A stretch of DNA of 64,000 bases. Origin: Tagaea sp. GTDB taxonomy: Bacteria; Pseudomonadota; Alphaproteobacteria; CACIAM-22H2. The notes beneath the pieces were generated by a model. The model searched no databases and was not told the origin of the DNA. It was given only the letters and a program-made list of their open reading frames with translations. Below, piece after piece: positions 18,639-52,328 of the stretch. Position 1 is the stretch's first letter, and each line of letters begins with the position of its first letter. The position numbers and the translations under genes are program-made. The stretch lies in the NCBI GenBank assembly GCA_965279565.1, contig OZ257249.1, positions 2,897,116 to 2,961,115 of the forward strand. The letters run 5' to 3'.

Positions 18639-19630
<992 letters not shown>

Positions 19631-36440: not shown

Positions 36441-37220
36441 CTAGCGCCCGCCCGTCACGTCGACGAAGGCCGCGGTCGCGAAAGCGGCCTTGTCCGACAG
36501 CAGGAACAGCGCGAAATCCGCGATCTCGTCGGGGCGGCCGGGGCGGTTGAGCGGGATCATCTTCGCCATGTTGGCGTAGTGGTCGGCCCCGTCGACGTCG
36601 TGCGCCGGCGTCATGATCGTCGCCGGGCGGATGACGTTGACGCGGATTCCTTCGGGTGCCACCTCGACCGCGACGTTGAGGCTGAAGCCGTCGACCGCCG
36701 CCTTCGCCGCGGCGTAGAGCACGAGCCCGCCCACGCCGTTCTTGCGGCTGGTCGGGCCGCCGCGGCGCGCGCAGTCCGACGAGATGTTGACGATGGCACC
36801 ACCCTTGCCGCCGCGCTTCGTGGACATGCGCTTGATCGCCTCGCGCGTGCACATGATCGTCGAATAGAGATTGAGCGCCGTCACGGCCTCGATCTGCGCG
36901 AGGCTCGCGTCCTCGGTGCGGCAGCCATCGGGGCCGAGCGATATCTTCCCGCCGCCGGCATTGTTGACGAGCGCGGTGACCGGGCCCAGCTCGCGGTCGA
37001 TCGTCGCGAACATGGCGACGACTTCGTTTTCCCTCGTCACGTCGGCCTTGATCGCGACCGCCTTGCCGCCGCCCGCGCGGATATCGGCGACGACCTTGTC
37101 GGCCTCCATCGGCGACTGGTTGTAATTCACCGCGACGCGGTAGCCTTCGCTGCCGGCCTTGCGGCAGATGGCGGCCCCGATGCCGCGGCTGCCGGCCGTC
37201 ACCAGAATGACGCGATCCAT
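36441..37220 (-). CDS. SDR-family oxidoreductase (tandem to the previous)
   Basis: Start at MDRVILVTAGSRGIGAAI with a GGGAGG SD. Catalytic YAAAKAAV motif. Confidence 0.8.
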   Translation of the reverse strand: MDRVILVTAGSRGIGAAICRKAGSEGYRVAVNYNQSPMEADKVVADIRAGGGKAVAIKADVTRENEVVAMFATIDRELGPVTALVNNAGGGKISLGPDGCRTEDASLAQIEAVTALNLYSTIMCTREAIKRMSTKRGGKGGAIVNISSDCARRGGPTSRKNGVGGLVLYAAAKAAVDGFSLNVAVEVAPEGIRVNVIRPATIMTPAHDVDGADHYANMAKMIPLNRPGRPDEIADFALFLLSDKAAFATAAFVDVTGGR

Positions 37221-37326
37221 GCGCTTTACCTCCCGAACTGGAGCCTTTCCCGGCTTGACGCATTGCCCGGGCGGACTTAGCATCCCTTAGAATAGGTCAG
37301 ACCTATTTAGTCAAGTTATCTGTCCA

Positions 37327-38124
37327 TTGCGCAGCGAGGTCCAGTTGGCGGTCAAGCCCCTCAAGAAGCTCGAACGCGGCGAGGCGACGGGTGGCGAAAC
37401 GGCCGGCAAGGGCGGCTCGCGGCCGTTCTTCGTGGCCCAGATCGGCCAGCGCAAGCGTCTCTACGAAGAGATCGCGGCGCGCATCGAACAGCATCTGCGC
37501 AGCGAGAATTTCCAGCCCGGCGATCGCCTGCCGCCCGAGCGCGAGCTTGCCCAGCAGCTCGGCGTCAGCCGCCCGTCGCTGCGCGAGGCGATGATCGCGC
37601 TCGAGACCGCAGGTCTGATCGAAGTGCTGGTCGGCAGCGGCACGTTCGTGCGCGCCCTCGCCCCCGAAGGCTTCAAGTTGCCGTGGGCGCGCGCCGGCGA
37701 TCCGGGCCCGGGCGTGCGCGAACAGTTCGAGGCACGCAAGCTGATCGAGCCGGAACTGGCCTTCCTCGCCGCCGAGTTCGTCACGCCCGAGGAAATCGAG
37801 ATCCTGCACAAGGCCGTCTATGCGGCGGCCGCGAAATTCGCGCAGGGCGAGCTCGCCGAGGCGGAGGACTACACGTATCACGTGACGCTCGCGGAAGCCT
37901 CGCGCAACACCGTGCTCGCGATGCTGATCCGCCACCTGTGGGACCTGCGCCAGGGCGAGATGTGGTTCAAGCTGCGCGCGCGCGTCGTGCTGCCCGAACA
38001 CCGCATGGAAGTGATCGCCGACCGGCGCGAGATCGTCGAGGCGCTGCGCCGGCGCGACGGCGCCACCGCGAAGGCCGTGATGGTGCGCTACCTGCAGCGG
38101 GCCGAGCGCCGATTCTTCGATTAA
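37327..38124 (+). CDS. GntR-family transcriptional regulator with FadR-like C-terminal (FCD) domain
   Basis: wHTH region RLYEEIAARIEQHLRSENFQPGDRLPPERELAQQLGVSRPSLREAM plus an FCD-type all-helical C-terminal domain. Exact start uncertain. Confidence 0.8.
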   Translation: MRSEVQLAVKPLKKLERGEATGGETAGKGGSRPFFVAQIGQRKRLYEEIAARIEQHLRSENFQPGDRLPPERELAQQLGVSRPSLREAMIALETAGLIEVLVGSGTFVRALAPEGFKLPWARAGDPGPGVREQFEARKLIEPELAFLAAEFVTPEEIEILHKAVYAAAAKFAQGELAEAEDYTYHVTLAEASRNTVLAMLIRHLWDLRQGEMWFKLRARVVLPEHRMEVIADRREIVEALRRRDGATAKAVMVRYLQRAERRFFD

Positions 38125-38242
38125 TGGCCTGACCTATCAGCTTGTCGATCTGCCTGTTTGCTGGGCGAAGTTTCGTGGATAGCTCATAATATACAAGTAA
38201 TTTCAGTTATTTGATTGAATTCAATCTCCGGCATTGCGTCGC

Positions 38243-38282
38243 TTGACTCTCCAGTAGTGAAAAAATAGATTGGTCTTACCAA
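38243..38282 (+). promoter_or_regulatory. candidate sigma70-type promoter (TTGACT-N17-TAGATT) overlapped by a GntR-type palindrome TTGGTCTTACCAA
   Basis: Seen in the AT-rich intergenic region about 80-110 nt upstream of the binding-protein gene. TGGT-N3-ACCA matches the general GntR/FadR operator pattern. A second perfect palindrome GATTGAATTCAATC lies at 38213-38226. Confidence 0.35.
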
Positions 38283-38358
38283 CAGATGACCGGATCGTCG
38301 GCCGTCCGGTTCAACGCGATCCTGCCGGCAAAGGCGGGACGCCAGGGAGGAAATCGCG

Positions 38359-39657
38359 ATGAAGTCCGCATCCGTGCAGGCGAGCCTGCTGTCCTTCGGC
38401 CTCTGCGCCGCCCTCGGCGTTTCGGCCGCGAACGCGCAGACCACCGTCACGATGTGGAGTTTCCTCGATCCGGCGAAGACCAGCGGGCGCGAAGTGGCGC
38501 TGCGCACGATGATCGAGAATTTCGAGAAGGCGAACCCCGGCGTGAAGGTCCGCGTCGAGCCGCAGATCTTCTCAGAGCTGATGACGAAGTTCCTCGCCGC
38601 CAACAACACCGGCACGGCCCCCGACCTGATCCTCGTCAACACCGAGAACATGGGCGCCTTCGCCAAGTCGGGTGCGGGCGCCGACCTCAACGCGCTGTTC
38701 ATCGACAAGTGGCCGCGCGGCCAGCAGGAGGATTTCTTCGTGCGCGCCGGCTGGGATGCCGGGCTCGTCGGCGGCAAGCGATATGCCGTGCCGCTGTTCC
38801 ACGCGACGACCAGCATCTTCTATCGCAAGGACCTGCTCGCCGCGGCCGGCATCGATCCCAAGTCGATCAAGACGTGGGACCAGCTTGCCGACGCCGCGAA
38901 GAAGCTGACGGGTGCCAGGGACGCCGGCGGGCGCGTCGACGTGTGGGGCTTCGGCACGCCGCTGTCGACCGAACGCACCGGCGGCACCACCGCCTTCTCC
39001 GCGATGATGTTCGCGGGCGAGGGGATGTGGAAGGACTGCAAGCCGCTCTACGCGTCGCCCACGGGCCTGCGTGCGCTTCAGTGGCACACCGACCTGATTG
39101 CCAAGGCGGGTGCCATGCCGCGCGAGACGATCGCCAACCATGTCGACGACGTCGTCGACCAGTTCACCGCCGGGCGCTACGCGATGGCCGTGATGCCGTT
39201 CGCCCGCTTCGAGAACGTGCGCGCGCAGGCCAAGTGGGACGGCCAGCAGCTCGCCATCCTGCCCTGGCCGAACTGGACGGCCGACAAGGTCGGGCCGCAG
39301 CAGGTCCAGGGCTGGTACGCCGGCATCTGGAGCAAGTCGCGCCGCCTGCCGGAAGCCGCGAAATTCCTCGAGCACATGATCAATCCGGAATCCGTGCGCC
39401 TCTGGTCGGAAGTGGGCGGGCAGGTGCCCACGCGCTTCTCGGTCTGGCAGCAGCCGCAGTTCCGCGACGCCAAGTTCGCCTTCATGGAGACGGTCGTCGA
39501 CGCGTGGAAGGCGTGGAGCTTCCAGATCCCGACCGAGTGCACGACCACGCAGTTCGATGCCGACCTCAACCGTGCGGTCCAGCGCGTGCTCGTCGGCGGC
39601 ATCGCGCCGGCGGCCGCCATGCAGGAAGCCGAGCGCGCCTTCCTCGGCCGCCAGTAG
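38359..39657 (+). CDS. sugar ABC transporter substrate-binding protein (family 1)
   Basis: 432 aa with signal peptide MKSASVQASLLSFGLCAALGVSAANA. Paralog of the binding protein at 45387..46676. Confidence 0.85.
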   Translation: MKSASVQASLLSFGLCAALGVSAANAQTTVTMWSFLDPAKTSGREVALRTMIENFEKANPGVKVRVEPQIFSELMTKFLAANNTGTAPDLILVNTENMGAFAKSGAGADLNALFIDKWPRGQQEDFFVRAGWDAGLVGGKRYAVPLFHATTSIFYRKDLLAAAGIDPKSIKTWDQLADAAKKLTGARDAGGRVDVWGFGTPLSTERTGGTTAFSAMMFAGEGMWKDCKPLYASPTGLRALQWHTDLIAKAGAMPRETIANHVDDVVDQFTAGRYAMAVMPFARFENVRAQAKWDGQQLAILPWPNWTADKVGPQQVQGWYAGIWSKSRRLPEAAKFLEHMINPESVRLWSEVGGQVPTRFSVWQQPQFRDAKFAFMETVVDAWKAWSFQIPTECTTTQFDADLNRAVQRVLVGGIAPAAAMQEAERAFLGRQ

Positions 39658-39680
39658 CAACAGCGGAAGATCGGACGAAC

Positions 39681-40559
39681 ATGATGGCCGCCGCACGACG
39701 CTTTGACGCCCAGCCCTACGCATTCGTGGCGCCGCTGCTCGTGCTGGAGATCCTGTTCGTCGCGGTCCCGCTCGTGCTCGGCTTCTACTACAGCCTCCAC
39801 CGCGCGGACTATTTCCAGGTCACCCAGTTCCGCGGCCTTGGCAACTACGAGCGGATGCTCGATTCGCCGATGGTGCTGAACTCGCTGATGGTGACCGGCA
39901 TCTTCTCGATCTTCGCGCTGTTCTTCACCTTCATCCTCGGCTTCGCGCTCGCGCTCTATCTCGAGCGCGACACGCGCTTCAACATGTTCCTGCGCGCGGT
40001 CGTGCTGATCCCCTACATCATCGCGATGCTGGTCGGCTCGATGCTGCTCAAGTGGATCTTCGGGCAGGATTCCGGGATCCTCAACTTTGCGCTCGGTCCG
40101 ATGGGGCTGGGCCAGACGACGATCCTTGCCGATCCCAACGCCGCGATGGGCGCTCTCGTGTTCAACGCGGTGTGGCGGGATTCGGCTTTCGCGATGATCC
40201 TGCTGCTCGCCGGCCTCAAGGGCATCGACCCGCAGCTCTACGCCGCCGCGCGCGTCGACGGGGCGGGGGCGATCATGCGCTTCCGCACGCTGACGCTGCC
40301 GCTGATGCGCACGCCGATCCTGATCACGACGATCCGGCTGGCGATCCATTTCGTCAACGTGCTGACCTTCGCGCTGATCCTGACCGGCGGCGGGCCCAAC
40401 GAGGCGACGCAGACGCTGGGCCTGACGATGTACCGGATCGGTTTCGTCGATTTCCGCATCGGCCAGGCCAGCGCCATGGCGTTCATGGTGTTCCTGTTCA
40501 ACCTGGTGCTGATCTTCATCCTGCTGCGGCTGTTCAAGGAAAAGCAGGGGGTTCCATGA
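39681..40559 (+). CDS. sugar ABC transporter permease
   Basis: Real start is the internal ATG (MMAAARRFDAQPYAFVAPLLVLEILFVAVPLVLGFYYSL...). The listed 757-aa ORF is a read-through artifact. Confidence 0.85.
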   Translation: MMAAARRFDAQPYAFVAPLLVLEILFVAVPLVLGFYYSLHRADYFQVTQFRGLGNYERMLDSPMVLNSLMVTGIFSIFALFFTFILGFALALYLERDTRFNMFLRAVVLIPYIIAMLVGSMLLKWIFGQDSGILNFALGPMGLGQTTILADPNAAMGALVFNAVWRDSAFAMILLLAGLKGIDPQLYAAARVDGAGAIMRFRTLTLPLMRTPILITTIRLAIHFVNVLTFALILTGGGPNEATQTLGLTMYRIGFVDFRIGQASAMAFMVFLFNLVLIFILLRLFKEKQGVP

Positions 40560-41392
40560 CCTGGCGCAAGCGCGTCCTGCACCGCCGCCTTGCCAACGCC
40601 GCGATCGGCTTCGCGATCTGCGCGGTGGCGCTGTTCCCGATCCTGTGGGGCCTGTCGACGTCGCTGAAGCCCGCCAACCGGATCCTCGAATATCCGCCCG
40701 AGCTGATTCCGTCGACACCGACGCTCGAGCACTATTTCTACCTGTTCGAGACCGGCATCACGCGCCCGATCGTCAACAGCCTGATCGTGTCGTTCTTCTC
40801 GGTCGCGTTCAGCCTGCTGTTCGGCACGCTCGCGGGTTACGCGCTCGCCCGCTACGACTTCCGCGGCCGGGGCGGCGTCATGATGGCGATCGTCGCGGTG
40901 ATGAGCATCCCGCTGCCCTCGCTGACCGTGCCGACCTTCATCCTGCTCGCCCTCATCGGCCTCAACGACACGCTCGTCGGCCTCACGATCCTCTACACCG
41001 CCTACCAGCTTCCGATCACGGTCTGGATCCTCTACGGCTATTTCCGCACGCTGCCGCGCGAACTGGAATCCGCCGCGATGATCGACGGCTATTCGCGCCT
41101 GCAGGTGTTGCGCAAGATCGTCGTGCCGCTGTCGGGCCCCGGCCTGATCGCCTCGGGCCTGTTCGTGCTGACCTTCGCGTGGAACGACTTCGTCGTCGCG
41201 GTGGCGATGGTCTCGTCGGCCGAGACGCGCACGCTGCCGCTCGCGATCTACAACTATCTCGGATTCTTCGGGCGCGAATGGGGGCCACTGACGGCCTCGG
41301 CCATGGTCGCGACGATCCCGGTGATCGTCGTGTTCCTCGCGTTCCAGCGCTACTTCCTGTCCGGCATGACCGGCGGAAGCGTGAAGGGCTAG
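40556..41392 (+). CDS. sugar ABC transporter permease
   Basis: Start at MTWRKRVLHRRLANAAIGF. ATGA overlap with the upstream permease. EAA loop AAMIDGYSRLQVLRKIVVP. Confidence 0.85.
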   Translation: MTWRKRVLHRRLANAAIGFAICAVALFPILWGLSTSLKPANRILEYPPELIPSTPTLEHYFYLFETGITRPIVNSLIVSFFSVAFSLLFGTLAGYALARYDFRGRGGVMMAIVAVMSIPLPSLTVPTFILLALIGLNDTLVGLTILYTAYQLPITVWILYGYFRTLPRELESAAMIDGYSRLQVLRKIVVPLSGPGLIASGLFVLTFAWNDFVVAVAMVSSAETRTLPLAIYNYLGFFGREWGPLTASAMVATIPVIVVFLAFQRYFLSGMTGGSVKG

Positions 41393-41414
41393 CTCGGATG
41401 GGAATTCAACGCGC

Positions 41415-42518
41415 ATGACCAACGTGACTTTCAGCGGCGTGACGAAGCGCTTCGGCACCGTCGTGGCCCTCGAAAGCCTCGACCTCAAGATCGAGGCGGG
41501 CGAGTTCGTCTCGCTGCTCGGGCCGTCGGGCTCGGGCAAGACGACGTCGCTCAACCTGCTGGCGGGCCTGCTGCCGATCGACGACGGCGAGATCCGCATC
41601 GGCGACAAGGTCGTCAACGACCTGCCGCCGGACAAGCGCGACATCGCGATGGTGTTCCAGAACTACGCGCTCTATCCGCACATGACGGTGTTCGAGAACA
41701 TCGCCTTCCCGCTGCGCGCACGTCAGCGCCGCGTGGGCGAGGCCGAAATCGTCCAGCGCGTCGACCGCGTGGCGGGCGCCATGGGCATTGGCGACCTGCT
41801 CGCCCGCTATCCCAAGGAGCTTTCCGGCGGGCAGCAGCAGCGCGTGGCGCTGGGACGCGCGATGGTGCGCGATCCCAAGGTCTTCCTGCTCGACGAGCCG
41901 CTGTCGAACCTCGACGCGCGCCTGCGCATCCGCATGCGCCACGACATCAAGGCGCTGCACCAGTCGATCAAGTCGACGATCGTCTACGTCACGCACGACC
42001 AGGCCGAGGCGATGAGCATGTCCTCGCGCATCGCGGTCTTCAACAAGGGGCGGCTGCAGCAGTACGGCACGCCGCGCCAGATCTATGCCGAGCCGGTCAA
42101 CCAGTTCGTCGCGAACTTCGTGGGCGAACGCGAGACGACCTTCATCGACGGCACGCTCGTCGAGCGCGGCGGCGTGCCCACGTTCGAGGCCGGCGGGGCG
42201 GCGATCCCGATCGCGGGCGCGCAGACGCGCTTCCCGTCGGCGATGGGCCGGCCGGTACGCCTGGGCGTGCGCGCCGAAAGCGTGCGACTGGCCGAAGGCG
42301 GATCGCGCGGCGCCCTGCCCGCGACGGTGACGCTCAGCGAACTCTCCGGTCCCGACCAGATCCTCTATGTGCGCACGGCGGCCGGCATCGAGCTGTGCTG
42401 CCGGACCGATCCGGCGACGATCGCGCGGCCGGGCGACACGGTGCCGATCGAGTTCGTCGCGAGCCTGCTGCACGCGTTCGATCCGGCGACGGGCGAGACC
42501 CTCGCCAAAGCTTCCTGA
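41415..42518 (+). CDS. sugar ABC transporter ATP-binding protein (MalK/UgpC-like)
   Basis: Walker A GPSGSGKTT, signature LSGGQQQRVALGRA, and a TOBE-like C-terminus. Confidence 0.9.
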   Translation: MTNVTFSGVTKRFGTVVALESLDLKIEAGEFVSLLGPSGSGKTTSLNLLAGLLPIDDGEIRIGDKVVNDLPPDKRDIAMVFQNYALYPHMTVFENIAFPLRARQRRVGEAEIVQRVDRVAGAMGIGDLLARYPKELSGGQQQRVALGRAMVRDPKVFLLDEPLSNLDARLRIRMRHDIKALHQSIKSTIVYVTHDQAEAMSMSSRIAVFNKGRLQQYGTPRQIYAEPVNQFVANFVGERETTFIDGTLVERGGVPTFEAGGAAIPIAGAQTRFPSAMGRPVRLGVRAESVRLAEGGSRGALPATVTLSELSGPDQILYVRTAAGIELCCRTDPATIARPGDTVPIEFVASLLHAFDPATGETLAKAS

Positions 42519-42540
42519 AGACGGGGCGGAACCTTTCCAG

Positions 42541-43944
42541 ATGGCACAGACACTCAACCGGATCGAATTCGACGTCGTGGTGCTGGGCGGCGGTGCCGCG
42601 GGCGTGGCGAGCGCCATCGCGGCGGCGCGCAACGGGGCGCGCACGGTGCTGATCGATGCCGGGCCGATGATCGGCGGCGAGATGGTCAGCGGCATCCCGA
42701 TCGACGGGTGCCTCTCCAGCCGCGGCGAATGGGTCGTCGGCGGCGTGATCCGCGACATCTTCGCCGAGTGCGAGCGCCTGGGCGGCTATATCGGCCCGGT
42801 CAACGACTATCGCTCGCTCAACGTCGTCGCCATCGATCCCGAGATCATGAAGATCGCGATCATGAACGAGGTGCGCAAGGTGGGCGTCACGCTGCTCCTC
42901 TACACGTTCGGCGAGGATGTCGTCGTGAACAAGGGCCGCGTCGAGGGCATCGTCGTCCTCAACAAGAACCAGCGCACGCTCGTCACCGGCAAGGTCTTCG
43001 TCGACTGTTCGGGCGACGGCGACATCGCGGTCGCGGCGGGCGCGCCCTTCGAACTCGGCGACGCGTCGGCGGGCGATCTCCAGCCGATCTCGATGGTGTT
43101 CCGCATGGTCGGGATCGAGACCGAGCCGCTGCTGCGCTTCGTGCGCGACAATCCCGAGAATTGCGGCCTTGGCGAGTATCCGGGCCTCAACATGACGCGC
43201 CAGCAATGCGCCGACGCGCTCTACAAGCAGGGTCTCGCCAAGGTCTTCCTCGTCTCCGAGGGGCCCTTGATGCGCCAGGCGATCGCGGCGGGCGATCTCT
43301 ACAAATCCTCGATGATCGCGGTCACGCCGGTGTCGCTCGCGCGCAAGGAAGTCAGCCTCAACACGACGCGCATCGGCAACATCGACGCGACGAAGACCGA
43401 GCAGCTGAGCCGCGCACTGCCCGACCTGCTCGACCAGGTGTGGAACTGCACCGCCTTCATGAAAAAATACGTGCCCGGCTTCGAGAACGCGCATTTCTCG
43501 GGCCTCGCCCCGCGCATCGGAATCCGCGAGACGCGCCGCATCATGTGCGACTACGTGCTGTCCGACGACGACGTCTATCAGGCGCGCAAGAAGGATGACG
43601 GGATCGCCAAGGGTGCGCACGAGGTCGACGTCCACGGCAGCGGCACCAAGCACCTGCGCGAGGCGGTCAAGGACGGGGGGTCCTACGACATTCCCTACGC
43701 CACGCTCGTCGCGCGCACGCTTGCCAACGTGTTCGTCGCCGGGCGCTGCATGTCGGCGACGCGCGTGGCGCACAGTTCGGCGCGCGTGATGGGTACGTGC
43801 ATGGCGATGGGCCAGGCGGCCGGTACGGCCGGTGCGATGTGCGCCAGCGCCAACGCATGGAGCGGCGACATCCGCGACGTGCGTGTGCCGCAGCTTCGCG
43901 ACGTGCTGCGCGCGCAGGGGGCGGTGCTCGATGGAACCTACTAG
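42541..43944 (+). CDS. FAD-dependent oxidoreductase (FAD_oxidored-type, about 465 aa)
   Basis: Start at MAQTLNRIEFDVVVLGGGAAGVASAIAAARNGARTVLIDAG, a dinucleotide-binding motif. Confidence 0.75.
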   Translation: MAQTLNRIEFDVVVLGGGAAGVASAIAAARNGARTVLIDAGPMIGGEMVSGIPIDGCLSSRGEWVVGGVIRDIFAECERLGGYIGPVNDYRSLNVVAIDPEIMKIAIMNEVRKVGVTLLLYTFGEDVVVNKGRVEGIVVLNKNQRTLVTGKVFVDCSGDGDIAVAAGAPFELGDASAGDLQPISMVFRMVGIETEPLLRFVRDNPENCGLGEYPGLNMTRQQCADALYKQGLAKVFLVSEGPLMRQAIAAGDLYKSSMIAVTPVSLARKEVSLNTTRIGNIDATKTEQLSRALPDLLDQVWNCTAFMKKYVPGFENAHFSGLAPRIGIRETRRIMCDYVLSDDDVYQARKKDDGIAKGAHEVDVHGSGTKHLREAVKDGGSYDIPYATLVARTLANVFVAGRCMSATRVAHSSARVMGTCMAMGQAAGTAGAMCASANAWSGDIRDVRVPQLRDVLRAQGAVLDGTY

Positions 43945-43960
43945 GTCCGGGAACTAGGCG

Positions 43961-45352
43961 ATGGCGCGCGCCATCCGTTCGCTGCACTACGACGTCGCCG
44001 TGATCGGCGGCGGCAGTGCCGGCGTGGCGGCGGCGGTCGCTTCCGCGCGCAACGGCGCGCGGACGGTCCTTGTCGATGCCGGCCCGATGGCGGGTGGCGA
44101 ACTGGTCAGCGGTCTGCCGCTCAACGCCGTGCTGAACGCGCGCGGCGAATGGGTCGCGGGCGGCATCTGCCGCGAGCTGGTCGAGGCGTGCCGCGCGATG
44201 GGCGGGCTCGTCGAGCCCTATTTCGACTGGCGCTCGCTGTGGCTCGTCTGCGTCGATCCGGAGATCATGAAGATCGCGGTCGCGCGCCTGCTGCGTGATG
44301 CCGGCGTCGACCTGCTGCTCTACAGCTTCGCCGAGGACGTCGTCGTCGAGGACGGCCGCGTCACCGGCGTGTTCGTGCTCAACAAGAACGGCCGCAACCT
44401 GGTCGAGGCCGACCTGTTCGTCGACTGCTCGGGCGACGGCGACATCGCGGCGATGGCGGGTGCCCCGTGGGAGAAGGGCGGCGAGAAGGGCGAACTGCAG
44501 CCCGTCACGCTGATCTTCCGCATGATGGGCGTGGAGACCGAGCCGCTGCTCGATTTCGTGCGCAAGCATCCCGAGAACGTGGGATTGGGCGAATGCCTGC
44601 TCGAGCCGCGCTCGAAATCCGACTGCGCGGAAGAGCTCTACCGGCAGGGCGTGCCGTCGGTGTTCTTCGACGGCAAGGCGCCGTTCGTGGCGCGCGCGAT
44701 CGAACGGGGCGAGCTGCATCCGTGCGGCATCCTCGCGGTCTGCCCGCTTTCCACCCAGCGGCGCGAGGTCAGCCTCAACACCACGCGCATCGCCAATCTC
44801 GACGCGACGCGCACCGACGTGCTGAGCCAGGCCCTGCCGCAGCTCCTCGACCAGGTCTGGACCTGCGCGAGCTTCCTGACGAAGCGCGTGCCTGGCTTCG
44901 AGAAGGCCGCCTTCAGCGGGATCGCGCCGCGCATCGGCATCCGCGAGACGCGGCGTATCCTCGGCGAATACGTGCTGACCGGGGCCGACGTGCTCGCCGG
45001 GCGCAAGCGCGCCGACGGCATCTGCAAGGGCGCGCACGAACTGGACGTGCACGGGGCCGGCAGCGCGCATCGCCGCGAGATGATCGCCGAAGGCGGCTCC
45101 TACGACGTGCCGTTCGGCTGCCTGCTGCCCAAGCGCACGGCGAACATGCTCGTCGCGGGGCGCTGCCTGTCGGCGACGCGCGAGGCGCACGGGTCGGCGC
45201 GCGTGATGGGCACATGCATGGGCATGGGGCAGGCGGCGGGAACCGCCGCGGCCCTGTGCGCGGCGGATGGAACATCCCTGCGGCAGCTATCGGTGCCCGC
45301 TTTGCGCGAGCGCCTGGCTTCGCAGGGGGCGATTCTCGAAGGAACACACTAG
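43961..45352 (+). CDS. FAD-dependent oxidoreductase, tandem paralog of the previous
   Basis: MARAIRSLHYDVAVIGGGSAGVAAAVASARNGARTVLVDAG. Collinear similarity to the 42541 gene across the whole length, roughly 50-60% identity by eye. Confidence 0.75.
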   Translation: MARAIRSLHYDVAVIGGGSAGVAAAVASARNGARTVLVDAGPMAGGELVSGLPLNAVLNARGEWVAGGICRELVEACRAMGGLVEPYFDWRSLWLVCVDPEIMKIAVARLLRDAGVDLLLYSFAEDVVVEDGRVTGVFVLNKNGRNLVEADLFVDCSGDGDIAAMAGAPWEKGGEKGELQPVTLIFRMMGVETEPLLDFVRKHPENVGLGECLLEPRSKSDCAEELYRQGVPSVFFDGKAPFVARAIERGELHPCGILAVCPLSTQRREVSLNTTRIANLDATRTDVLSQALPQLLDQVWTCASFLTKRVPGFEKAAFSGIAPRIGIRETRRILGEYVLTGADVLAGRKRADGICKGAHELDVHGAGSAHRREMIAEGGSYDVPFGCLLPKRTANMLVAGRCLSATREAHGSARVMGTCMGMGQAAGTAAALCAADGTSLRQLSVPALRERLASQGAILEGTH

Positions 45353-45386
45353 GCGGATCAACCGTCATAACGAAGGAGAGGGAACG

Positions 45387-46676
45387 ATGGGACATTTCAG
45401 GAGCCTTACGGGCACGGCGCTGCTGGCGCTGGCAACGATCGGAAGCGGGGCCGCTTCCGCGCAGACGACCGTCACGATGTGGACGTTCCTCGATCCGCTG
45501 CGCACGTCGCCGCGCGAGATCGCGCTCAAGCAGATGATCGAGGGCTTCGAGAAGGCCAACCCGTCGATCAAGATCAAGGTCGAGCCGCAGGACTTCGCGC
45601 AGATGCCGCCGCGCTTCTTCCTCGGCCACGGTACGGGCCAGAATCCCGACATCGTGTGGATCGACGCCAAGAATCTCGGCGGCCTGATCCAGTCGGGTGC
45701 GGCGACCGACCTGCAGCAGACGCTCGTCTCGAAATGGCCGGCCGGCCAGCGCGAGGATTTCTTCGTGGGTGCGGGCTGGGATGCGGCCAAGCAGGGCAAC
45801 AAGCTGCACGCCCTGCCGCTGTTCCACGGTGCGAGCGTGATCTACTACCGCAAGGACCTGCTGCGCGAGGCCGGCATCGATCCGGCGACGCTGAAGAGCT
45901 GGGATGCCATCGCCGAGGCGGCCAAGAAGCTGACCAAGACGAAGGACGGCCGCGTCGACGTGTGGGGCTTCGGCATGCCGCTCGCCCCCACCAAGACGGA
46001 GAGCACGCCGCTGCTGATCGGCATGATCGACGCCGGCGGGCAGATCTTCAACGGCTGCAAGGCGAACTTCGCCACGCCGGCCGGCGTGCGCGGGCTCAAC
46101 TTCACCGCCTCGCTGATCACCCAGCACAAGGTCACGCCGCAGGAAGCGCTGGCCCAGCACGTGGACGACATCACCGACCAGTTCACGGCCGGTCGCTACG
46201 CGATGGCGATCACCGCGAACCTGCGCTTCAGCGCCGTGGCGCGCGCCGCGGCGTTCGGCGGCTCGAACATCGGCGTCCTGCCGTGGCCGACCTGGACGGG
46301 TCAGGGCACGGGGCCCATGCCGGTCTCCGGCTGGTGGGTCGCGATGTGGAACAAGTCGCCGCGCCAGGCCGAAGCCGGGAAGTTTGTCGAGTACATGACC
46401 GGGGCCGAGGGCGTGAAGCTCTGGTCGACGGTCGGCGGACAGGTCCCGACGCGCAAGTCCGTCCTCGCCGAACCCGTCTTCAAGGAGCCGCAGAACGAGT
46501 GGATCCAGACGATGGTCGCGGCGTGGTCGGCCCGCAGCTGGATCGAGCCCACCGAGTGCAACACCCGCACGATGCAGGCCGCCCTCAACGAGGCCGTGCA
46601 CCGCGTGGTGCTGCAGAACGCCAACCCGATGGACGCGCTCAGGGAAGCCGAGCGCAAGTTCAACGACGCCCAGTAA
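45387..46676 (+). CDS. second sugar ABC substrate-binding protein (paralog of 38359)
   Basis: Start MGHFRSLTGTALLALATIGSGAASA with an AAGGAGAG SD. Shares blocks with the first binding protein (QTTVTMW.FLDP, GWDA, GQVPTR, PTECNT). Confidence 0.85.
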   Translation: MGHFRSLTGTALLALATIGSGAASAQTTVTMWTFLDPLRTSPREIALKQMIEGFEKANPSIKIKVEPQDFAQMPPRFFLGHGTGQNPDIVWIDAKNLGGLIQSGAATDLQQTLVSKWPAGQREDFFVGAGWDAAKQGNKLHALPLFHGASVIYYRKDLLREAGIDPATLKSWDAIAEAAKKLTKTKDGRVDVWGFGMPLAPTKTESTPLLIGMIDAGGQIFNGCKANFATPAGVRGLNFTASLITQHKVTPQEALAQHVDDITDQFTAGRYAMAITANLRFSAVARAAAFGGSNIGVLPWPTWTGQGTGPMPVSGWWVAMWNKSPRQAEAGKFVEYMTGAEGVKLWSTVGGQVPTRKSVLAEPVFKEPQNEWIQTMVAAWSARSWIEPTECNTRTMQAALNEAVHRVVLQNANPMDALREAERKFNDAQ

Positions 46677-46742
46677 CGACGACAAGCGGCGGGGCGGCCG
46701 TCGGGCCGCCCCGGTCCGCATCAACCCGAGAGGAACGAGAAC

Positions 46743-47501
46743 GTGGACACCAAGCTTGCCGACAAGACCGTCTTCATCACCGGCGCCGGTGCCGGCATCG
46801 GGCAGTCGATCGCGAAGCATTTCGCGATCGAGAAGACGAACGTCTACGTCACCGACATCAGTGGTGCTGCGGCCGAGCAGACCGCCAAGGAAATCTGCGA
46901 TGCCGGCGGCCGTGCGACCGCCATGGCGCTCGACGTGACGAAGCGCGCGGACGTGTTCGCCGCGATCGGCAAGGTCGTGGATGCGACGGGCGGCGTCGAC
47001 GTGCTCGTCAACAATGCCGGCGTGGTGGCGCTGGCGAAGATCGAAGAGATCACCGAATCGGAGTTCGACCGCATCTATGCGGTCAACGTGAAGGGCAAGC
47101 TTTTCTGCATGCAGGCGGCGGTGCCCGCCATGAAGAAGCGCAAGTGGGGTCGGATCATCAACACCTGCTCGATCTCGGGCAAGACGGGCGGCAAGCTGCC
47201 CTACGCGCACTACACCTCGTCGAAGGCCGCTGTGTGGACCATGACGATGGCCGCCGCGCACGAGTTCGCGCCGTTCGGCATCAACGTCAACGGGATCGCG
47301 CCCGGCTCGGTCATCGGAACGGCCTTCTCGAAGGGCTTCGATCTCAACAACGATCCGGAAGTCCTGAAGGCGACGATCCCGCTGGCGCGCCGCGGCGTGC
47401 CGGACGACATCGCACCTGCCGTGGTCTTCCTTGCCTCTGACGGGGCCCGCTACATCACCGGCGAGCTCATCGACGTCAATGGCGGACTGCACATGGATTG
47501 A
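46743..47501 (+). CDS. SDR-family oxidoreductase
   Basis: GTG start. TGAGAGIG glycine motif, NNAG, YxxxK (YTSSKAAV). Confidence 0.85.
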   Translation: MDTKLADKTVFITGAGAGIGQSIAKHFAIEKTNVYVTDISGAAAEQTAKEICDAGGRATAMALDVTKRADVFAAIGKVVDATGGVDVLVNNAGVVALAKIEEITESEFDRIYAVNVKGKLFCMQAAVPAMKKRKWGRIINTCSISGKTGGKLPYAHYTSSKAAVWTMTMAAAHEFAPFGINVNGIAPGSVIGTAFSKGFDLNNDPEVLKATIPLARRGVPDDIAPAVVFLASDGARYITGELIDVNGGLHMD

Positions 47502-47511
47502 GGGCACGAAC

Positions 47512-48726
47512 GTGGCATCCCTGAAAATCGAAGCGATCGAATGCATCCCGGTCACGGTGCCGATCGAGGCGCCGATCCTGACCTGCTACGGCTCGCTCGC
47601 GGCCTATCCGCGCGTGCTGGTCAAGATCGTCGCCGAGAACGGCCTCGTCGGCTACGGCGAGACGGCGGCCCGCTACAAGCCGGAGACGTTCCGGATGTTC
47701 GAGTCGATCTTCAAGGGATCGAATCCCTGGGAGTCGACGCGGCTGATCAGCCGGATCAAGCACTGGAACTACTATCCCTGGCAGAAGCCCGAGCCGCTGA
47801 TGGCCGGGCTCGAGCTTGCGTGCCTCGACCTGGTTGGCAAGTCGATCGGCGAACCGCTGCACCGCATCCTCGGCGGCAAGATCCACAAGGAGGTGCCCGT
47901 CGCCTCCTACCTGTTCTATCGCCACGCCAACGCGGCCGGGCAGGGCAAGATCCATACGGTCGACGAGGTCGTGGCCTTCGCCAAGGCGCAGGTCGCGCAG
48001 TACGGGTTCGGCGCGCTGAAGCTCAAGGGCGGCTATTTCTCGCCGGAAACGGATCGCGACGCGCTTGTCGCACTTCGCGACACGTTCGGGCGCGACATGC
48101 GCCTGCGCCTCGATCCGCAGGGCTGCTGGACGCCGGTCACGGCCGTGCGCATCGGCCGTCAGCTCGACGCGATCGACCTCGAATACTACGAGGATCCGTG
48201 CTGGAACGCCGCCGGGATGGCGCGCGTCAAGAAGTCGGTCACCACGCCGCTGGCGACCAACATGTGCGTGACGCAGTTCGAGGAGTTCCATCCCGCGACG
48301 TCGATCGGGGCGGTCGACGTCGTGCTCAGCGATCTCTGGTACTGGGGCGGAGCGCGCGCGACGATGGCGGTCGACCGGATGTGCCATGCCAGCGGCATCG
48401 ATCTCGGCATGCATTCCAGCGCCGAGCTGGGCGTGGGCTGGGCCGCGATGATCCATGTCGCGAGCGCCATGCCGCACCTGAAGCTCGCCATCGACTGCAT
48501 GAACCTGCATCTCGTCGACGACATCATCGTCGGCGGCAAGCTCGTGCCGAAGAACGGCACGATCGCGCCGCCCGACGGCCCGGGGCTGGGCGTGGAGATC
48601 GACGAGGTGAAGCTGAAGAAGTACGCGGAACTCGCGCGTTCGGGCTCGGCGAGCGACCGCTTCCTCGATCCGACGCTGGCCGATAGTGCAAGGCCGGGCT
48701 GGCATCCGCACAGCCCGACCTGGTGA
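47512..48726 (+). CDS. enolase-superfamily enzyme (mandelate racemase/muconate lactonizing family; glucarate-dehydratase-like)
   Basis: Start at the GTG after the SDR stop, with a GAGGG SD (MASLKIEAIECIPVTVP...). MR_MLE N- and C-domains with conserved acid/base and metal-ligand positions (KLKGG, LDPQG, EDP). Confidence 0.75.
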   Translation: MASLKIEAIECIPVTVPIEAPILTCYGSLAAYPRVLVKIVAENGLVGYGETAARYKPETFRMFESIFKGSNPWESTRLISRIKHWNYYPWQKPEPLMAGLELACLDLVGKSIGEPLHRILGGKIHKEVPVASYLFYRHANAAGQGKIHTVDEVVAFAKAQVAQYGFGALKLKGGYFSPETDRDALVALRDTFGRDMRLRLDPQGCWTPVTAVRIGRQLDAIDLEYYEDPCWNAAGMARVKKSVTTPLATNMCVTQFEEFHPATSIGAVDVVLSDLWYWGGARATMAVDRMCHASGIDLGMHSSAELGVGWAAMIHVASAMPHLKLAIDCMNLHLVDDIIVGGKLVPKNGTIAPPDGPGLGVEIDEVKLKKYAELARSGSASDRFLDPTLADSARPGWHPHSPTW

Positions 48727-48743
48727 GACAAGCAGGGGACAGG

Positions 48744-49412
48744 ATGATCGATCTCGACAAGCACGACTGGCCGTCGATCGCGGCGCGCTTCAAGCGGCTC
48801 TACACGCCGGCGGTCTGCGACGTGCTCGACGACTACGAGCTGCGCCACCAGTACGTCCACCATGGCATCCGGCCGCTCGACCGCACGCTGATGCTGGCAG
48901 GCCCCGCCTTCACGATCGTCGGCATGTCGAACTCGACGCGCGACAAGTCCAAGCGCATGGGGCCGCGCGTCATCGACAGCTTCGTGCCGCATGTCGTGGC
49001 CTGCTACGACACGATGGGCAACGAGGACACCGGCGTGTGGGGCGAGCTGTGGAGCGTGGGTGCCGCCAAGCGCGGCTGCGTGGGTGCCGTCGTCGATGGC
49101 GGCATTCGCGACACGGCCTATATCCGGCGCGCGGGCTTCCCGATGTACCATCGCCACACCGCACCGGGCGACGCGGTCGGCCGTTTCAACATCGTCGATT
49201 TCAACTGCCCGGTGTCGATCGGCGGCGTGCGCGTCAATCCGGGCGACTACGTCTTCGGCGACGAGGACGGCATCATGATCATCCCGCGCGCGATCACGAT
49301 CGAGGTGCTGGAGAGGGCGGAAACCGTCTGCGCGCGCGAGAACCGCATCCGCGACGCGATCGACGGGAACACCTCGCTCGCCGATCTCTACACGAAGTTC
49401 GGCCAGTTCTGA
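48744..49412 (+). CDS. RraA-like protein (4-hydroxy-4-methyl-2-oxoglutarate aldolase / RraA family)
   Basis: Start at the internal ATG (MIDLDKHDW...) with an AGGGGACAGG SD. RraA-like fold motifs GAVVDGGIRD and IIPR. Confidence 0.75.
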   Translation: MIDLDKHDWPSIAARFKRLYTPAVCDVLDDYELRHQYVHHGIRPLDRTLMLAGPAFTIVGMSNSTRDKSKRMGPRVIDSFVPHVVACYDTMGNEDTGVWGELWSVGAAKRGCVGAVVDGGIRDTAYIRRAGFPMYHRHTAPGDAVGRFNIVDFNCPVSIGGVRVNPGDYVFGDEDGIMIIPRAITIEVLERAETVCARENRIRDAIDGNTSLADLYTKFGQF

Positions 49413-49422
49413 GCGCCGCCGC

Positions 49423-50298
49423 ATGGCCGCCCCGAAGCGCCGAATCCTGCTGACGGGATCGCTCGGCCATCTCGGCGCGGCCGTCGCGCGTGAGCTTGCC
49501 GGGGCCGGACACGAGCTGACCTGCATCGACCGGCGCCCGCCCGACGGAAACCCGCCGGGCGCCTTCGTGCGCGACGACCTGTCGGATGTCGGGCGGCTCG
49601 CGGGCCTGATGAACGGGATGGACGCCGTCGTCCATTGCGCCGCGATCGCCAGGCTGCACGCGGCCCCCGAGGAAACGGTCTTCGCGACGAACGTCACGAC
49701 GACCGCGAACATGCTGCTTGCGGCCGAACGCGCCGGGATCGGCCGTTTCGTCTATGCGTCGAGCCAGTCGGCCCTGGGTTTCGCCTATGCGCCGCGCATC
49801 GTGCCTCCCGACCGGCTGCCGGTCGACGAGACGCATCCCTGCCGGCCGGTCGAAGGCTACGGGCTGAGCAAACGCGTGGGCGAACAGCTTTGCGAGATGG
49901 TGTCCGCGCGGTCGGCCATGACGAGCGTGGCGCTGCGCTTCCCGGTCATCTGGTCGCACGAACGTTTCGAGGCGCACACGCGCAAGCGACTCGACGATCC
50001 GGTCCAGGCAGCTAAGAGCCAATGGGCCTATGTCGACCTGCGCGACGCCGCCACTGCGTGCCGGCTTGTGTCAGAGGTAACGCTCACCCATCCTCATCGC
50101 GTATACAACATTGGCGCAAGCCGGCCATTCGAGCTTACTGATGCGGCCGTAATTCTAAGAGTTTCCTATGGCGAAGTTGATGGATTGTCGGATGTTTTAG
50201 CATCGGGTGATGCGTTGTTCGATACCACCCGGGCTAGGTTCGAACTAGGGTTCCAGGCGCAATGGTGCTGGAACAGAATGCGGGTCGAGCATGTCTAA
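49423..50298 (+). CDS. NAD-dependent epimerase/dehydratase family protein
   Basis: ILLTGSLGHLGAAVARELAGAGHEL Rossmann motif. The last ~70 codons (from about 50090) are markedly lower in GC than the rest of the gene. Confidence 0.75.
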   Translation: MAAPKRRILLTGSLGHLGAAVARELAGAGHELTCIDRRPPDGNPPGAFVRDDLSDVGRLAGLMNGMDAVVHCAAIARLHAAPEETVFATNVTTTANMLLAAERAGIGRFVYASSQSALGFAYAPRIVPPDRLPVDETHPCRPVEGYGLSKRVGEQLCEMVSARSAMTSVALRFPVIWSHERFEAHTRKRLDDPVQAAKSQWAYVDLRDAATACRLVSEVTLTHPHRVYNIGASRPFELTDAAVILRVSYGEVDGLSDVLASGDALFDTTRARFELGFQAQWCWNRMRVEHV

Positions 50299-50490: not shown

Positions 50491-50852
50491 AAACAAACAG
50501 GCCAGCCGGTCACAGGATCGACTGGCGTTGTTCGTTCTGCCTTGCGCTACTGCGGGGTCGGCTCATCCCGCACGATCAAGTTCATCGATCGCGACGCGCA
50601 AGCTCGGCATTGCGTCCCTGCGCGAGCCAGTCGGAGACGGGCCGGTTGTGGTGATCGATGCGCGCCATTCGATCTGGAGCCGCATCTTCGTGAACATGCT
50701 GTAGCCCGTCAGGGCAAGGAACGCCGTCGCCAGTGCGGCGAAAGGGCCGAAACCTTTTTTCTCTGACCTGCATGCACAGAACTCGTTGATCAGAGATCTG
50801 ATCGACGGGCTTTTCGAGAAAATTGCATTGCCGTACTCAAAATTCGGAAGGC

Positions 50853-52328
50853 TCACGGCTTCCGTGATCTCCATTCCCGCCAGAACGGCCAGACGAAACA
50901 TGCGGCCGCGACAAGTAGCAGGCCAAGCGATCCCGGGCGGGTCACGAGTGGCCACATCGAGCCGTCGGATATCATGAGTGCCGACCGAAGTTTCGCTTCC
51001 GCCATCGGTGCCAGGACGAAGCCGATCACGAACGGGGCAAGTGGGAAGCGTGCGAATTCCATCGCCAATCCGACCAGTCCGAACAGAAGCATGATCCAGA
51101 CGTCGGAGACCTGCCCATCGACGGCGAACGCTCCGACAATGCAGAACACGACAACGGTCGGGAACAGAATCGCGCGAGGTACGAGCATTAGCCTGGCGAA
51201 GAGAAGCACGCCTGCCGTCATCAGCACGTACATCGCGACATGCGCGACAAGGTGCGTCGCCATGATCGTGTTGACGATTTCGGGATTCGTCGAGAACAGC
51301 AGCGGGCCGGGCCGCAGGTTGTGCATGACGAGGGCCGCCAGCAGGATCGCGTCGGCGATCCCGCCGGGAATTCCCAGTGCTAGGAGCGGGATAAGCGAGC
51401 CGCCGGTCGTCGCGTTGTTGGCGCTCTCCGCCGCGACGATCGCCTCCTCGCTGCCCGTGCCGAACGCCTCCGGGGTCTTCGACACGTTCTTCGCGACCGT
51501 GTAGGCGACGATCGACGACACTGCCGAGCCTACGCCTGGGTGGATCCCGATCCACACGCCGATCAGCGAAGAACGCAGCATGTTCCAGCCATGCACGACA
51601 TAATCGCTGAGCCGGAGAAAGACGCCACGCATCGACGCGCGGACATGATCGTTGCCTTGTTCGATGTGCATCGTGTCGGCGACGAGCTGCGACATCGCGA
51701 ACAGGCCGATGACGACGGGCAAAAGCTGGAATCCGTTGGTCAGCGCTTCGACGCCGAATGTCAGACGTACGATGCCGGAAGTCTGGTCTACGCCCGGCAT
51801 CGCGACGAGGACGCCGAGCAATGCCGAAATCATACCTTTGAGGAACGAACCGCGGCTGAGGGAGGAAACGAGCACGAGCGCGGTGAGCACGAGTGCGAAA
51901 TTCTCCCAAGGCCCCAGCAATACGGCGAGATCGGCCACAGGGCGCGTCAGCAACACAAGGAAGAGCCAGCCCACGAATCCGCCGACGATCGAACCGGCAT
52001 TTCCGAGGCCCAGTGCCCGCCCGGGAAATCCCTTTTTGGCGAGCGGATAGCCGTCGAGCGTCGTCATCACCGCATTCGGCTCGCCGGGGATGCGCATCAG
52101 TGTCGCAGTGACAAGACCACCCGAGATACCGCCCACGAACATCGAGATCAACAGCACGATCGCATTGGTCGGCGACATCGAGTAGGTGAACGGCAGCGTG
52201 AGCGCCATCAACATGCCAGCCGTGATACCCGGCATGACGCCGACGGCGATGCCGATCGTCACGCCCGTCATCATGATGAGGAAGGGGAGGGGCGTTGCTA
52301 GATTGAAGAAAGCGTCCGCAAGCGTCAT
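50853..52328 (-). CDS. tctA: TctA-family tripartite tricarboxylate transporter large permease
   Basis: 491 aa from the internal ATG (MTLADAFFNLATPLPFLIMMTGVTIGIAVGVMPGITAG...). The listed 658-aa ORF has an Arg-rich spurious N-terminus. Confidence 0.9.
   Translation of the reverse strand: MTLADAFFNLATPLPFLIMMTGVTIGIAVGVMPGITAGMLMALTLPFTYSMSPTNAIVLLISMFVGGISGGLVTATLMRIPGEPNAVMTTLDGYPLAKKGFPGRALGLGNAGSIVGGFVGWLFLVLLTRPVADLAVLLGPWENFALVLTALVLVSSLSRGSFLKGMISALLGVLVAMPGVDQTSGIVRLTFGVEALTNGFQLLPVVIGLFAMSQLVADTMHIEQGNDHVRASMRGVFLRLSDYVVHGWNMLRSSLIGVWIGIHPGVGSAVSSIVAYTVAKNVSKTPEAFGTGSEEAIVAAESANNATTGGSLIPLLALGIPGGIADAILLAALVMHNLRPGPLLFSTNPEIVNTIMATHLVAHVAMYVLMTAGVLLFARLMLVPRAILFPTVVVFCIVGAFAVDGQVSDVWIMLLFGLVGLAMEFARFPLAPFVIGFVLAPMAEAKLRSALMISDGSMWPLVTRPGSLGLLLVAAACFVWPFWREWRSRKP

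Follow-up and report, generated by a model that had tools for sequence, protein, structure and literature searches.

Non-phosphorylative routes such as the Weimberg/Dahms pathways, the LRA1-4 rhamnose pathway, and the Udh-GudD-KdgD uronate pathway share one logic, in which an NAD dehydrogenase is followed by an enolase-superfamily dehydratase and then by a lyase or decarboxylating dehydratase. The same logic can be read in the gene cluster considered here, which occupies positions 36441-50298 of a 64,000-nucleotide stretch of the Tagaea sp. contig OZ257249.1 (this whole stretch being referred to as the window); relative to those routes, however, the cluster ends with an RraA-fold protein instead of an HpcH/DHDPS aldolase or KdgD, adds two preceding flavoproteins, carries no lactonase, kinase, or aldehyde dehydrogenase, and gives no equivalog match. 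Its import system also has described counterparts: in AlgQ1/AlgQ2 with AlgM1M2SS and in HisJ/ArgT with HisQMP, one translocator is served by two paralogous receptors that widen its substrate range, whereas the two receptors encoded in the window are far more diverged (50% identity) and each is found alone with the same importer type elsewhere. The two-subunit opine oxidases and the flavin-containing opine dehydrogenases (OoxAB/NoxAB; PDB 7FGP) are likewise flavoenzymes encoded beside an importer, and they effect a one-step conversion of the imported conjugate.

The Tagaea cluster is a mosaic of two separately conserved modules, and one orthologous importer and regulator travels with either of them. 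Module 1 is taken to comprise a CUT1-type ATP-binding cassette (ABC) importer with a tandem pair of cytoplasmic PF12831 flavoproteins, FAD-A and FAD-B (FAD, flavin adenine dinucleotide), and Module 2 to comprise two classical short-chain dehydrogenases/reductases (SDRs), an extended SDR, a GlucD-like dehydratase, and an RraA-like lyase; the unit would have been built by joining the two with their common orthologous importer and regulator. With a rough probability of 55% for the scheme as a whole, 36441-50298 is a single, GntR-repressed catabolic unit, divergent SDR included, that takes up two related carbohydrate-derived solutes, subjects them to flavin-dependent first steps, and feeds a non-phosphorylative oxidise-dehydrate-cleave route. 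The architecture (gene content and modular layout) is held with much higher confidence. The analysis shows which genes and families are present, how old the paralogues are and that they are co-inherited, the mosaic layout, and the conservation of operator-like sites.

In the scheme, in which reaction order, substrate class, flavoprotein chemistry, and the pairing of solute-binding proteins (SBPs) with flavoproteins are inferred, a single translocator would receive from SBP1 and SBP2 two related solutes of carbohydrate origin (probably acids or compounds that yield acids), and the flavoproteins would make the first committed conversions in the cytoplasm, where FAD-A may suffice for an SBP1-type ligand and FAD-B may act only together with FAD-A (sequentially or as a heteromer) on an SBP2-type ligand. 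NAD-dependent SDRs would then turn the released sugar into an aldonate or aldarate by oxidation, the enolase-family enzyme would dehydrate this acid to a 2-keto-3-deoxy acid, and the RraA-like enzyme would deliver either pyruvate and an aldehyde or, by dehydration/decarboxylation, alpha-ketoglutarate semialdehyde. The passage of two related substrates into one route, already suggested in an earlier annotation of the bare sequence (the original prediction), is a possible working model that rests on co-occurrence.

At a window G+C content of 65%, genuine genes stand out clearly against numerous spurious open reading frames (ORFs). The 12 genes from the GntR regulator to the extended SDR, all named in the original prediction, lie on the plus strand and are intact according to ORF calls and Pfam and NCBIfam matches. 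The genes of the unit are as follows:

36441-37220, minus strand: divergent classical SDR (Pfam adh_short_C2/adh_short; about 259 residues from Met22 of a 280-residue ORF)
37327-38124, plus strand: GntR-family regulator with FCD effector domain (PF00392 and PF07729; start at 37327, 37345, or 37432)
38359-39657, plus strand: SBP1, periplasmic CUT1-type binding protein (SBP_bac_1/SBP_bac_8, signal peptide)
39681-40559, plus strand: ABC permease 1 (BPD_transp_1)
40556-41392, plus strand: ABC permease 2 (BPD_transp_1)
41415-42518, plus strand: ABC ATPase of the MalK/UgpC type (ABC_tran and TOBE_2)
42541-43944, plus strand: FAD-A (FAD1), cytoplasmic flavoprotein (PF12831, 332 bits; clade A)
43961-45352, plus strand: FAD-B (FAD2), cytoplasmic flavoprotein (PF12831, 363 bits; clade B)
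45387-46676, plus strand: SBP2, second periplasmic CUT1-type binding protein (SBP_bac_1)
46743-47501, plus strand: classical SDR, aldose-1-dehydrogenase-like (adh_short_C2; NCBIfam NF005559)
47512-48726, plus strand: enolase-superfamily enzyme with GlucD-like barrel, candidate acid-sugar dehydratase (MR_MLE_C)
48744-49412, plus strand: RraA-like protein, either a class II pyruvate aldolase or a keto-deoxy-aldarate dehydratase/decarboxylase (PF03737)
49423-50298, plus strand: extended SDR of the NAD-dependent epimerase/dehydratase family, probably a dehydrogenase (PF01370)

These are known families throughout, arranged on a familiar plan, and the cluster is not categorically new; it is a real and fairly ordinary nutrient-uptake and breakdown operon, the unusual part of which is the conserved flavoprotein pair.

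Two modules with a common importer and regulator

The nearest genome hit, a Tagaea metagenome-assembled genome (MAG) of the Rhodospirillales (L007; 97% identity), has an identical gene order. In other genomes, Module 1 is found alone as GntR-permease-permease-ATPase-FAD-FAD-SBP2 (loci L001, L003, L010, L013, and L086 and a Joint Genome Institute contig), with Prosthecomicrobium and Alsobacter among the carriers; no orthologue of the window's distal genes is present in the examined stretch of the FAD-A-FAD-B-SBP2 genomes, and the genes that follow Module 1 there vary (an acyltransferase, a glucose-methanol-choline (GMC) oxidoreductase, or an amidohydrolase). Module 2 can be followed through orthologues of the enolase-family gene in Chelatococcus asaccharovorans (85% identity), Acuticoccus kandeliae (70%), and Brevundimonas (63%). 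The Chelatococcus and Acuticoccus loci (L087 and L088) are free of flavoproteins and carry a GntR gene (50-51%), an Opp-type ABC importer, and orthologues of the SDR at 46743-47501 (69-74%), the enolase-family gene, the RraA-like gene (75-81%), and the extended SDR (45-56%), together with orthologues of permease 1, permease 2, the ATPase, and SBP2 (63-69%). They also contain an orthologue of the divergent upstream SDR (63-65%), which is why that gene is counted within the cluster. The Brevundimonas locus (L089) reads MFS-GntR-enolase-RraA-extended SDR (MFS, major facilitator superfamily) and adjoins UxuA, an SDR, a second MFS gene, and a TonB-dependent receptor; the extended SDR always follows the RraA gene in these three loci. 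Orthologues of the GntR regulator (47-66% identity) flank modules of either type elsewhere, and among the examined loci only three combine the two binding proteins: the window, Tagaea L007, and an Elioraea MAG (L009).

As either module occurs without the other, the cluster might instead consist of two unrelated operons that became adjacent by chance, the importer and flavoproteins serving one nutrient and the acid-sugar pathway another. This explanation, the strongest of the rivals, is nevertheless considered unlikely. Both module types are accompanied by the same orthologous importer (SBP2, permeases, and ATPase) and GntR regulator, and chance juxtaposition is further disfavoured because Module 1 is placed between the two SDRs of Module 2 and is hence embedded in it. 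It is also disfavoured because a flavoprotein, an acid-sugar dehydratase, and an RraA-like gene co-localise independently in six more loci (L009, L019, L020, L028, L080, and L005), with non-orthologous dehydratases (enolase- or IlvD/EDD-type) and importers of differing types. Gene spacing from sbp1 to the last gene is tight, ranging from a 4-base overlap to a 66-base gap, and a scan of the region found no plus-strand terminator-like site between these genes; the sole hit inside this stretch is a weak minus-strand site at 43596-43609 (5 pairs, 3 G-C), and the first plus-strand site past the cluster is at 50505-50526 (4 terminator-like sites in the scanned region vs 7.5 expected by chance). The downstream border is firm, a convergent TctABC transporter coming next. 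What the original prediction described as one cluster is a mosaic of two separately conserved modules, with an importer and GntR regulator common to both.

The regulator fits the GntR family, FadR subfamily (PF00392, 85 bits; PF07729, 70 bits), and no NCBIfam equivalog reaches its cut-off. Two candidate GntR operators lie in the promoter regions of the cluster:

37291-37307: perfect 17-bp palindrome AATAGGTCAGACCTATT, upstream of gntR, with a GGT-N3-ACC core
38270-38282: palindrome TTGGTCTTACCAA, ahead of sbp1

The former is located just downstream of a promoter-like site at 37255-37283, and the latter abuts a promoter-like site at 38243-38271, next to its -10 element. The motif of TTGGTCTTACCAA has a single match in the window, which is not significant alone (0.41 expected by chance, at least one in 35 of 100 shuffles). 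It is identical in Tagaea L007, and TGGTCnnACCA-like sites recur upstream of related modules (L014, L015, L016, L028, L080, and L088), near-identical versions being found in Geminicoccus, Ancylobacter, Devosia, Chelativorans, and Acuticoccus; this recurrence upstream of orthologous modules gives the candidates more weight. With FadR-type GGT-N3-ACC palindromes in both promoter regions, GntR control, as originally predicted, is plausible and a reasonable inference, although the motif count in the window is not significant. The AT-rich spacer between gntR and sbp1 contains another perfect palindrome, GATTGAATTCAATC (38213-38226), placed upstream of the promoter-like site, and this could be a candidate site for a different regulator.

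Distal enzymes and a probable acid-sugar route

The distal families are those expected of an oxidise-dehydrate-cleave sequence, as the original prediction had noted. The SDR at 46743-47501 falls within the NF005559 'glucose 1-dehydrogenase' subfamily (227.6 bits vs a cut-off of 215), a broad model that is not proof of substrate, and it shares only 30% identity with the divergent SDR. The enolase-family protein (PF13378, 186 bits) has a barrel of the same subgroup as GlucD/GudD, and KLK, LDPQG, YEDP, TNM, SD, and MHS motifs can be read by eye in its translation, corresponding to the KxK, LDPxG, YEDP, TNM, and D...H motifs of those enzymes; the roles of these residues, as metal ligands and acid/base residues, are known from the GlucD literature. 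The glucarate dehydratase model TIGR03247 is its top NCBIfam hit, yet the score is 139.8 bits against a cut-off of 828.7 and the match covers the barrel domain only; the capping domain cannot be aligned with that of GlucD and resembles only unassigned structural-genomics proteins. Its nearest structures are 3VC5, 2OQH, and 4DYE, and a literature search on the PDB codes of its closest relatives gave nothing useful. A Sinorhizobium meliloti pSymB homologue of the gene (35% identity) is located in an operon with a lactonase, a glucose 1-dehydrogenase, and an AGE-epimerase, a setting that likewise fits the proposed logic.

The RraA-like protein (PF03737, 115.9 bits) could, judging by its sequence, be either an aldolase or a dehydratase/decarboxylase. 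FlDet of Flavobacterium sp. UMI-01, an RraA-family member, is a 2-keto-3-deoxyglucarate dehydratase/decarboxylase that forms alpha-ketoglutarate semialdehyde (PMC8563752); it resembles the window protein in fold family, size (237 residues, against 222 for the window protein), the DGG(I/F)RD motif, and acid-sugar context, but adjoins an alpha-ketoglutarate-semialdehyde dehydrogenase that has no counterpart in the window cluster and shares 26% identity (E=2e-13). The alternative parallel is HMG/CHA aldolase (LigK/ProA, 3NOJ; HMG, 4-hydroxy-4-methyl-2-oxoglutarate; CHA, 4-carboxy-4-hydroxy-2-oxoadipate), a class II pyruvate aldolase of the RraA fold whose Arg-Asp motif region aligns (DGGIRD in the window protein, DAGVRD in 3NOJ, and DGGFRD in FlDet) and whose 4-hydroxy-2-keto acid cleavage would suit the product of the dehydratase; it belongs to aromatic catabolism, in contrast to the carbohydrate context in the window. 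The window protein is as distant from FlDet as from this aldolase, and it falls short of the HMG/CHA aldolase equivalogs (NF006731, 79.9 bits vs 179; TIGR02798, 69.6 vs 304.5). The dehydratase-RraA-aldehyde dehydrogenase order of locus L020 fits the FlDet-type reading; since no aldehyde dehydrogenase is encoded in the cluster or among the scanned window ORFs, the aldolase reading fits slightly better here. GudL aldolase was also considered as a parallel and was set aside, as it is DapA-like and not RraA-like.

The extended SDR carries TGxxGxxG and YxxxK motifs. Its best solved relative is an unassigned Agrobacterium SDR (4ID9); uronate dehydrogenase (3RFT) is more distant, with a match that spans the N-terminal 160 residues only (E=2e-12) and falls short of closeness to Udh. 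For both this protein and the preceding one, the original labels ('NAD epimerase' and 'RraA-like aldolase') are family names, not established activities. Module 2 is most likely an oxidative, non-phosphorylative acid-sugar route, whichever chemistry its RraA-like member may catalyse.

The flavoprotein pair and its family

FAD-A and FAD-B are, as predicted, tandem paralogues (58% identity, end to end), and their resemblance, like that of SBP1 to SBP2, far exceeds what chance would give. Both match PF12831 over its full length (331.8 and 362.7 bits, respectively, against a cut-off of 27; profile positions 1-416), both carry at the N-terminus the GxGxxG motif for dinucleotide binding and have the fold of a two-domain flavoprotein, and neither has a signal peptide; the AlphaFold2 model of FAD-B has a confidence (pLDDT) of 90.5. 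Beyond the Rossmann motif, neither structure nor NCBIfam searches turned up a relative that is solved or named, and the literature on PF12831/FAD_oxidored yielded flavoproteome lists only and no characterised member.

The clade to which the pair belongs is large (1,710 clusters at 50% identity, E<=1e-30) and was sampled through 79 genome loci obtained from a flavoprotein profile search, plus several metagenome contigs; an exact look-up of FAD-B itself matched no recorded contig. Neighbour counts are approximate, having been obtained with a home-made gene caller that misses some membrane proteins and sometimes merges genes, and were cross-checked by tblastn and precomputed annotations. The 79 loci span many phyla, and clade members nearly always adjoin a transporter (CUT1 ABC in about 20 loci, TctC in about 19, Opp-type ABC in about 9, and tripartite ATP-independent periplasmic (TRAP) in about 6) and a regulator (GntR/FCD in about 27, IclR in about 8). 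Other neighbouring genes encode dehydratases (enolase or IlvD), aldehyde dehydrogenases, Zn-dehydrogenases, and GMC oxidoreductases. Judging from minimal units such as TctC-FAD-GntR, a single flavoprotein step may be enough to give ordinary metabolites. The family alignment contains numerous invariant arginines and a conserved GAHExDVHG motif; taken with the kinds of transporter and regulator, the invariant arginines suggest substrates that bear carboxylates and are related to carbohydrates. A far-reaching generalisation would make the PF12831 clade a large class of transporter-coupled catabolic flavoenzymes with chemistry new to flavoproteins (e.g., the oxidative stripping from sugars of acidic groups, pyruvyl or lactyl, linked as ethers or ketals, or flavin-dependent glycosidic cleavage), with A and B forming an obligate two-enzyme or heteromeric system; this is put forward tentatively and is unlikely to hold.

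Applied to the present cluster, one form of that chemistry constitutes a rival in its own right: the flavoproteins might strip an acidic non-sugar substituent (e.g., a pyruvate ketal or lactyl ether) from a sugar, or cleave a glycosidic bond, in either case by oxidising the adjacent carbon, whereupon Module 2 would take over the liberated sugar or uronate. In the xanthan loci of Paenarthrobacter and Microbacterium, an operon composed of a regulator, an ABC importer, and an FAD-dependent oxidoreductase adjoins a PL8 lyase that frees pyruvylated mannose, although the authors of that work assign depyruvylation to a different protein (PMC12772297; bioRxiv 10.64898/2026.04.20.719765). The juxtaposition of such an operon with the lyase speaks for substituent removal, as do the lack of a glycosidase in any of the clusters, the occurrence of flavoprotein homologues beside a sulfatase (Opitutales L021 and Clostridia L033) and BNR-repeat genes (L021 and Verrucomicrobia L032), and the invariant arginines and GAHExDVHG motif. 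Nevertheless, a search with an actinobacterial homologue returned no Microbacterium or Paenarthrobacter hit among the best 120, leaving the xanthan enzyme unplaced in the clade, and the chemistry is our own suggestion; this explanation is accordingly rated as doubtful, below that of two unrelated operons.

A slightly less probable proposal is that the imported solute is an opine- or Amadori-type conjugate of a sugar and an amino acid whose C-N bond is oxidised by the flavoproteins (as for a mannityl opine), the freed aldose then entering Module 2. The flavoprotein clade is linked to CUT1 and Opp-type importers, the two types used by Agrobacterium for mannityl opines; minimal units of transporter, flavoprotein, and regulator suggest one step to central metabolites; and a hydantoinase-type gene lies near the Devosia homologue. 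Against this, PLSDB plasmids hold no close homologue of FAD-B (best 39% identity, none on a Ti/Ri-type record) and no match to SBP2 at E<=1e-40, and the opine and Amadori oxidases known so far are DAO-family enzymes, whereas PF01266 covers just the first ~35 Rossmann residues of FAD-A and FAD-B. Moreover, homologues are present in MAGs assigned to Clostridia, Sphaerochaeta, and Victivallis, which are mostly anaerobic groups.

The presence of two binding proteins and two flavoproteins in one operon, each pair clearly paralogous, had led to the original proposal of matched, recent duplications that gave rise to two pairs, each dedicated to one of two related sugar acids. Phylogenies of both families contradict this proposal, which is rated improbable, a little more so than the opine proposal, and reveal neither recent tandem duplication nor matched pairs. 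The neighbour-joining tree of the flavoproteins separates an FAD1 clade (A) from an FAD2 clade (B); the two share internal branching, (L013,(L012,(L010,L003))) and (L009,(window,L007),(L086,L001)), and clade B genes lie without exception directly downstream of a clade A gene. FAD-A and FAD-B therefore arose once, long ago, and have since been passed on in tandem. Separate clades are also seen for the two binding proteins, with SBP1 orthologues in L007, L009, L026, L014, L015, and L019 and SBP2 orthologues in L001, L003, L010, L013, L063, and L009, as well as in L087 and L088. Identities of 50% (SBPs) and 58% (flavoproteins) are low for a recent event, and each copy has nearer orthologues (61-79%) in other genera than its partner in the window. 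Nor does flavoprotein number track binding-protein number, as at least five genomes (L001, L003, L010, L013, and L086) combine the FAD-A/FAD-B tandem with SBP2 only, whereas the SBP1-type modules of L026, L015, and L019 contain just one flavoprotein, from clade A or clade C, and that of L014 has one of each. In both trees the pairs are old paralogues, every copy having orthologues of its own.

Clade C, the sister clade, consists of stand-alone flavoproteins, paired in some marine and verrucomicrobial loci with members of clade D, which is more divergent. L028, L080, and L005 (the last being identical to L027, Devosia ginsengisoli) each have a single clade C flavoprotein and an orthologous GntR regulator beside Opp-type importers, the operons of which embed enolase-family and RraA-like genes; L005 also has a citrate-synthase-like protein with a helix-turn-helix domain as well as a fused hydantoinase A/B nearby. 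Three database proteins (P0005, P0010, and P0055) join an FAD-A-like to an FAD-B-like part, or FAD-B to SBP2. As P0005 and P0055 end in junk sequence and P0010 is two partial copies joined, they appear to be frameshifted adjacent-gene read-throughs and not true fusions, and P0005 and P0010 were not used as evidence for a heteromer.

The importer itself is a complete CUT1-type system (an SBP_bac_1 receptor, two BPD_transp_1 permeases, and a MalK-like ATPase with a TOBE domain), and the prediction that this single set of two permeases and one ATPase carries two paralogous binding proteins is borne out (50% identity, E=4e-151). Both have a signal peptide and the identical mature N-terminus QTTVTMW, the SBP1 peptide ending ANA/QTTVT, and their nearest solved relatives bear maltose- or trehalose-type names, with one sulfoquinovosyl-glycerol binder. 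A Ugp-like system that takes up glycerol-3-phosphate or glycerophosphodiesters, and in which the flavoproteins stand in for the usual glycerol-3-phosphate dehydrogenase, is very improbable: its best NCBIfam hits (UgpC for the ATPase, 373.5 bits vs 432; UgpB for SBP1, 44.5 bits vs 411, E=8e-12) and the weak N-terminal GlpB hits of the flavoproteins are all far below cut-off, the latter reflecting the dinucleotide-binding fold only, and the dehydratase, RraA-like, and SDR genes and the TctC- and TRAP-linked homologues would be left unexplained.

Standing of the scheme, genomic surroundings, and significance

Several observations weigh against the scheme of a single unit with flavin-dependent first steps feeding an acid-sugar route. 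No cluster protein reaches an NCBIfam equivalog cut-off and no specific activity is thereby established; the drawn route is incomplete, the cluster containing neither lactonase, kinase, nor aldehyde dehydrogenase; and Modules 1 and 2, each being found alone, may not act on one molecule. CUT1 binding proteins usually bind neutral sugars or oligosaccharides, and this habit, together with the names of the solved relatives of SBP1 and SBP2, sits uneasily with an acidic ligand. An obligate oxidase is disfavoured by the occurrence of homologues in mostly anaerobic groups, and the neighbourhood counts rest on a crude gene caller.

Solute importers are unusually plentiful in the window. Immediately downstream of the cluster, on the minus strand and convergent with it, 50853-56748 encodes TctA (50853-52829), a probable TctB, TctC (52848-53858), an ORF that matches nothing in Pfam, and an SGSH_C-domain sulfatase (55261-56748), sulfatases also being found beside flavoproteins in the Opitutales and Clostridia loci; a second TctA (61157-62647) and TctC (62644-63615) follow on the plus strand at 61157-63615. 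Upstream, 32280-35420 (plus strand) encodes a radical-SAM (S-adenosylmethionine) protein (32280-33392), a DUF3419 protein (33469-34755), and a SAM methyltransferase (34656-35420), the last two resembling as neighbours the BtaA/BtaB pair for synthesis of the betaine lipid diacylglyceryl trimethylhomoserine (DGTS). A third CUT1-type ABC operon at 25827-30948 (minus strand) encodes two permeases with their ATPase (29797-30948), a binding protein (26728-28023) with only 23% identity to SBP2, and a calcineurin-like metallophosphoesterase (25827-26678). At 18635-24758 (minus strand) there is an Opp-type ABC operon (SBP_bac_5, 21454-22998; ATPase, 18635-19630), accompanied by genes for a Zn-dependent dehydrogenase (23096-24109) and, at 24123-24758, a glyoxalase-like protein. 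Kdp potassium uptake genes occupy 3526-11296 (minus strand; KdpA, 9587-11296; KdpB, 7523-9562; sensor kinase KdpD, 4218-6941; response regulator KdpE, 3526-4221), and a hybrid PAS histidine kinase/LuxR-type protein is encoded at 853-3150.

As a gene cluster, the locus is one more GntR-controlled ABC-importer/acid-sugar operon, of a kind that fills alphaproteobacterial genomes, and it is a clear example of the assembly of a catabolic operon from modules that have an importer and a regulator in common. It is of value mainly as a way into a widespread orphan flavoprotein family, for which it offers a tractable case: two binding proteins for ligand fishing, two paralogous enzymes, and a downstream route that narrows the range of possible products.

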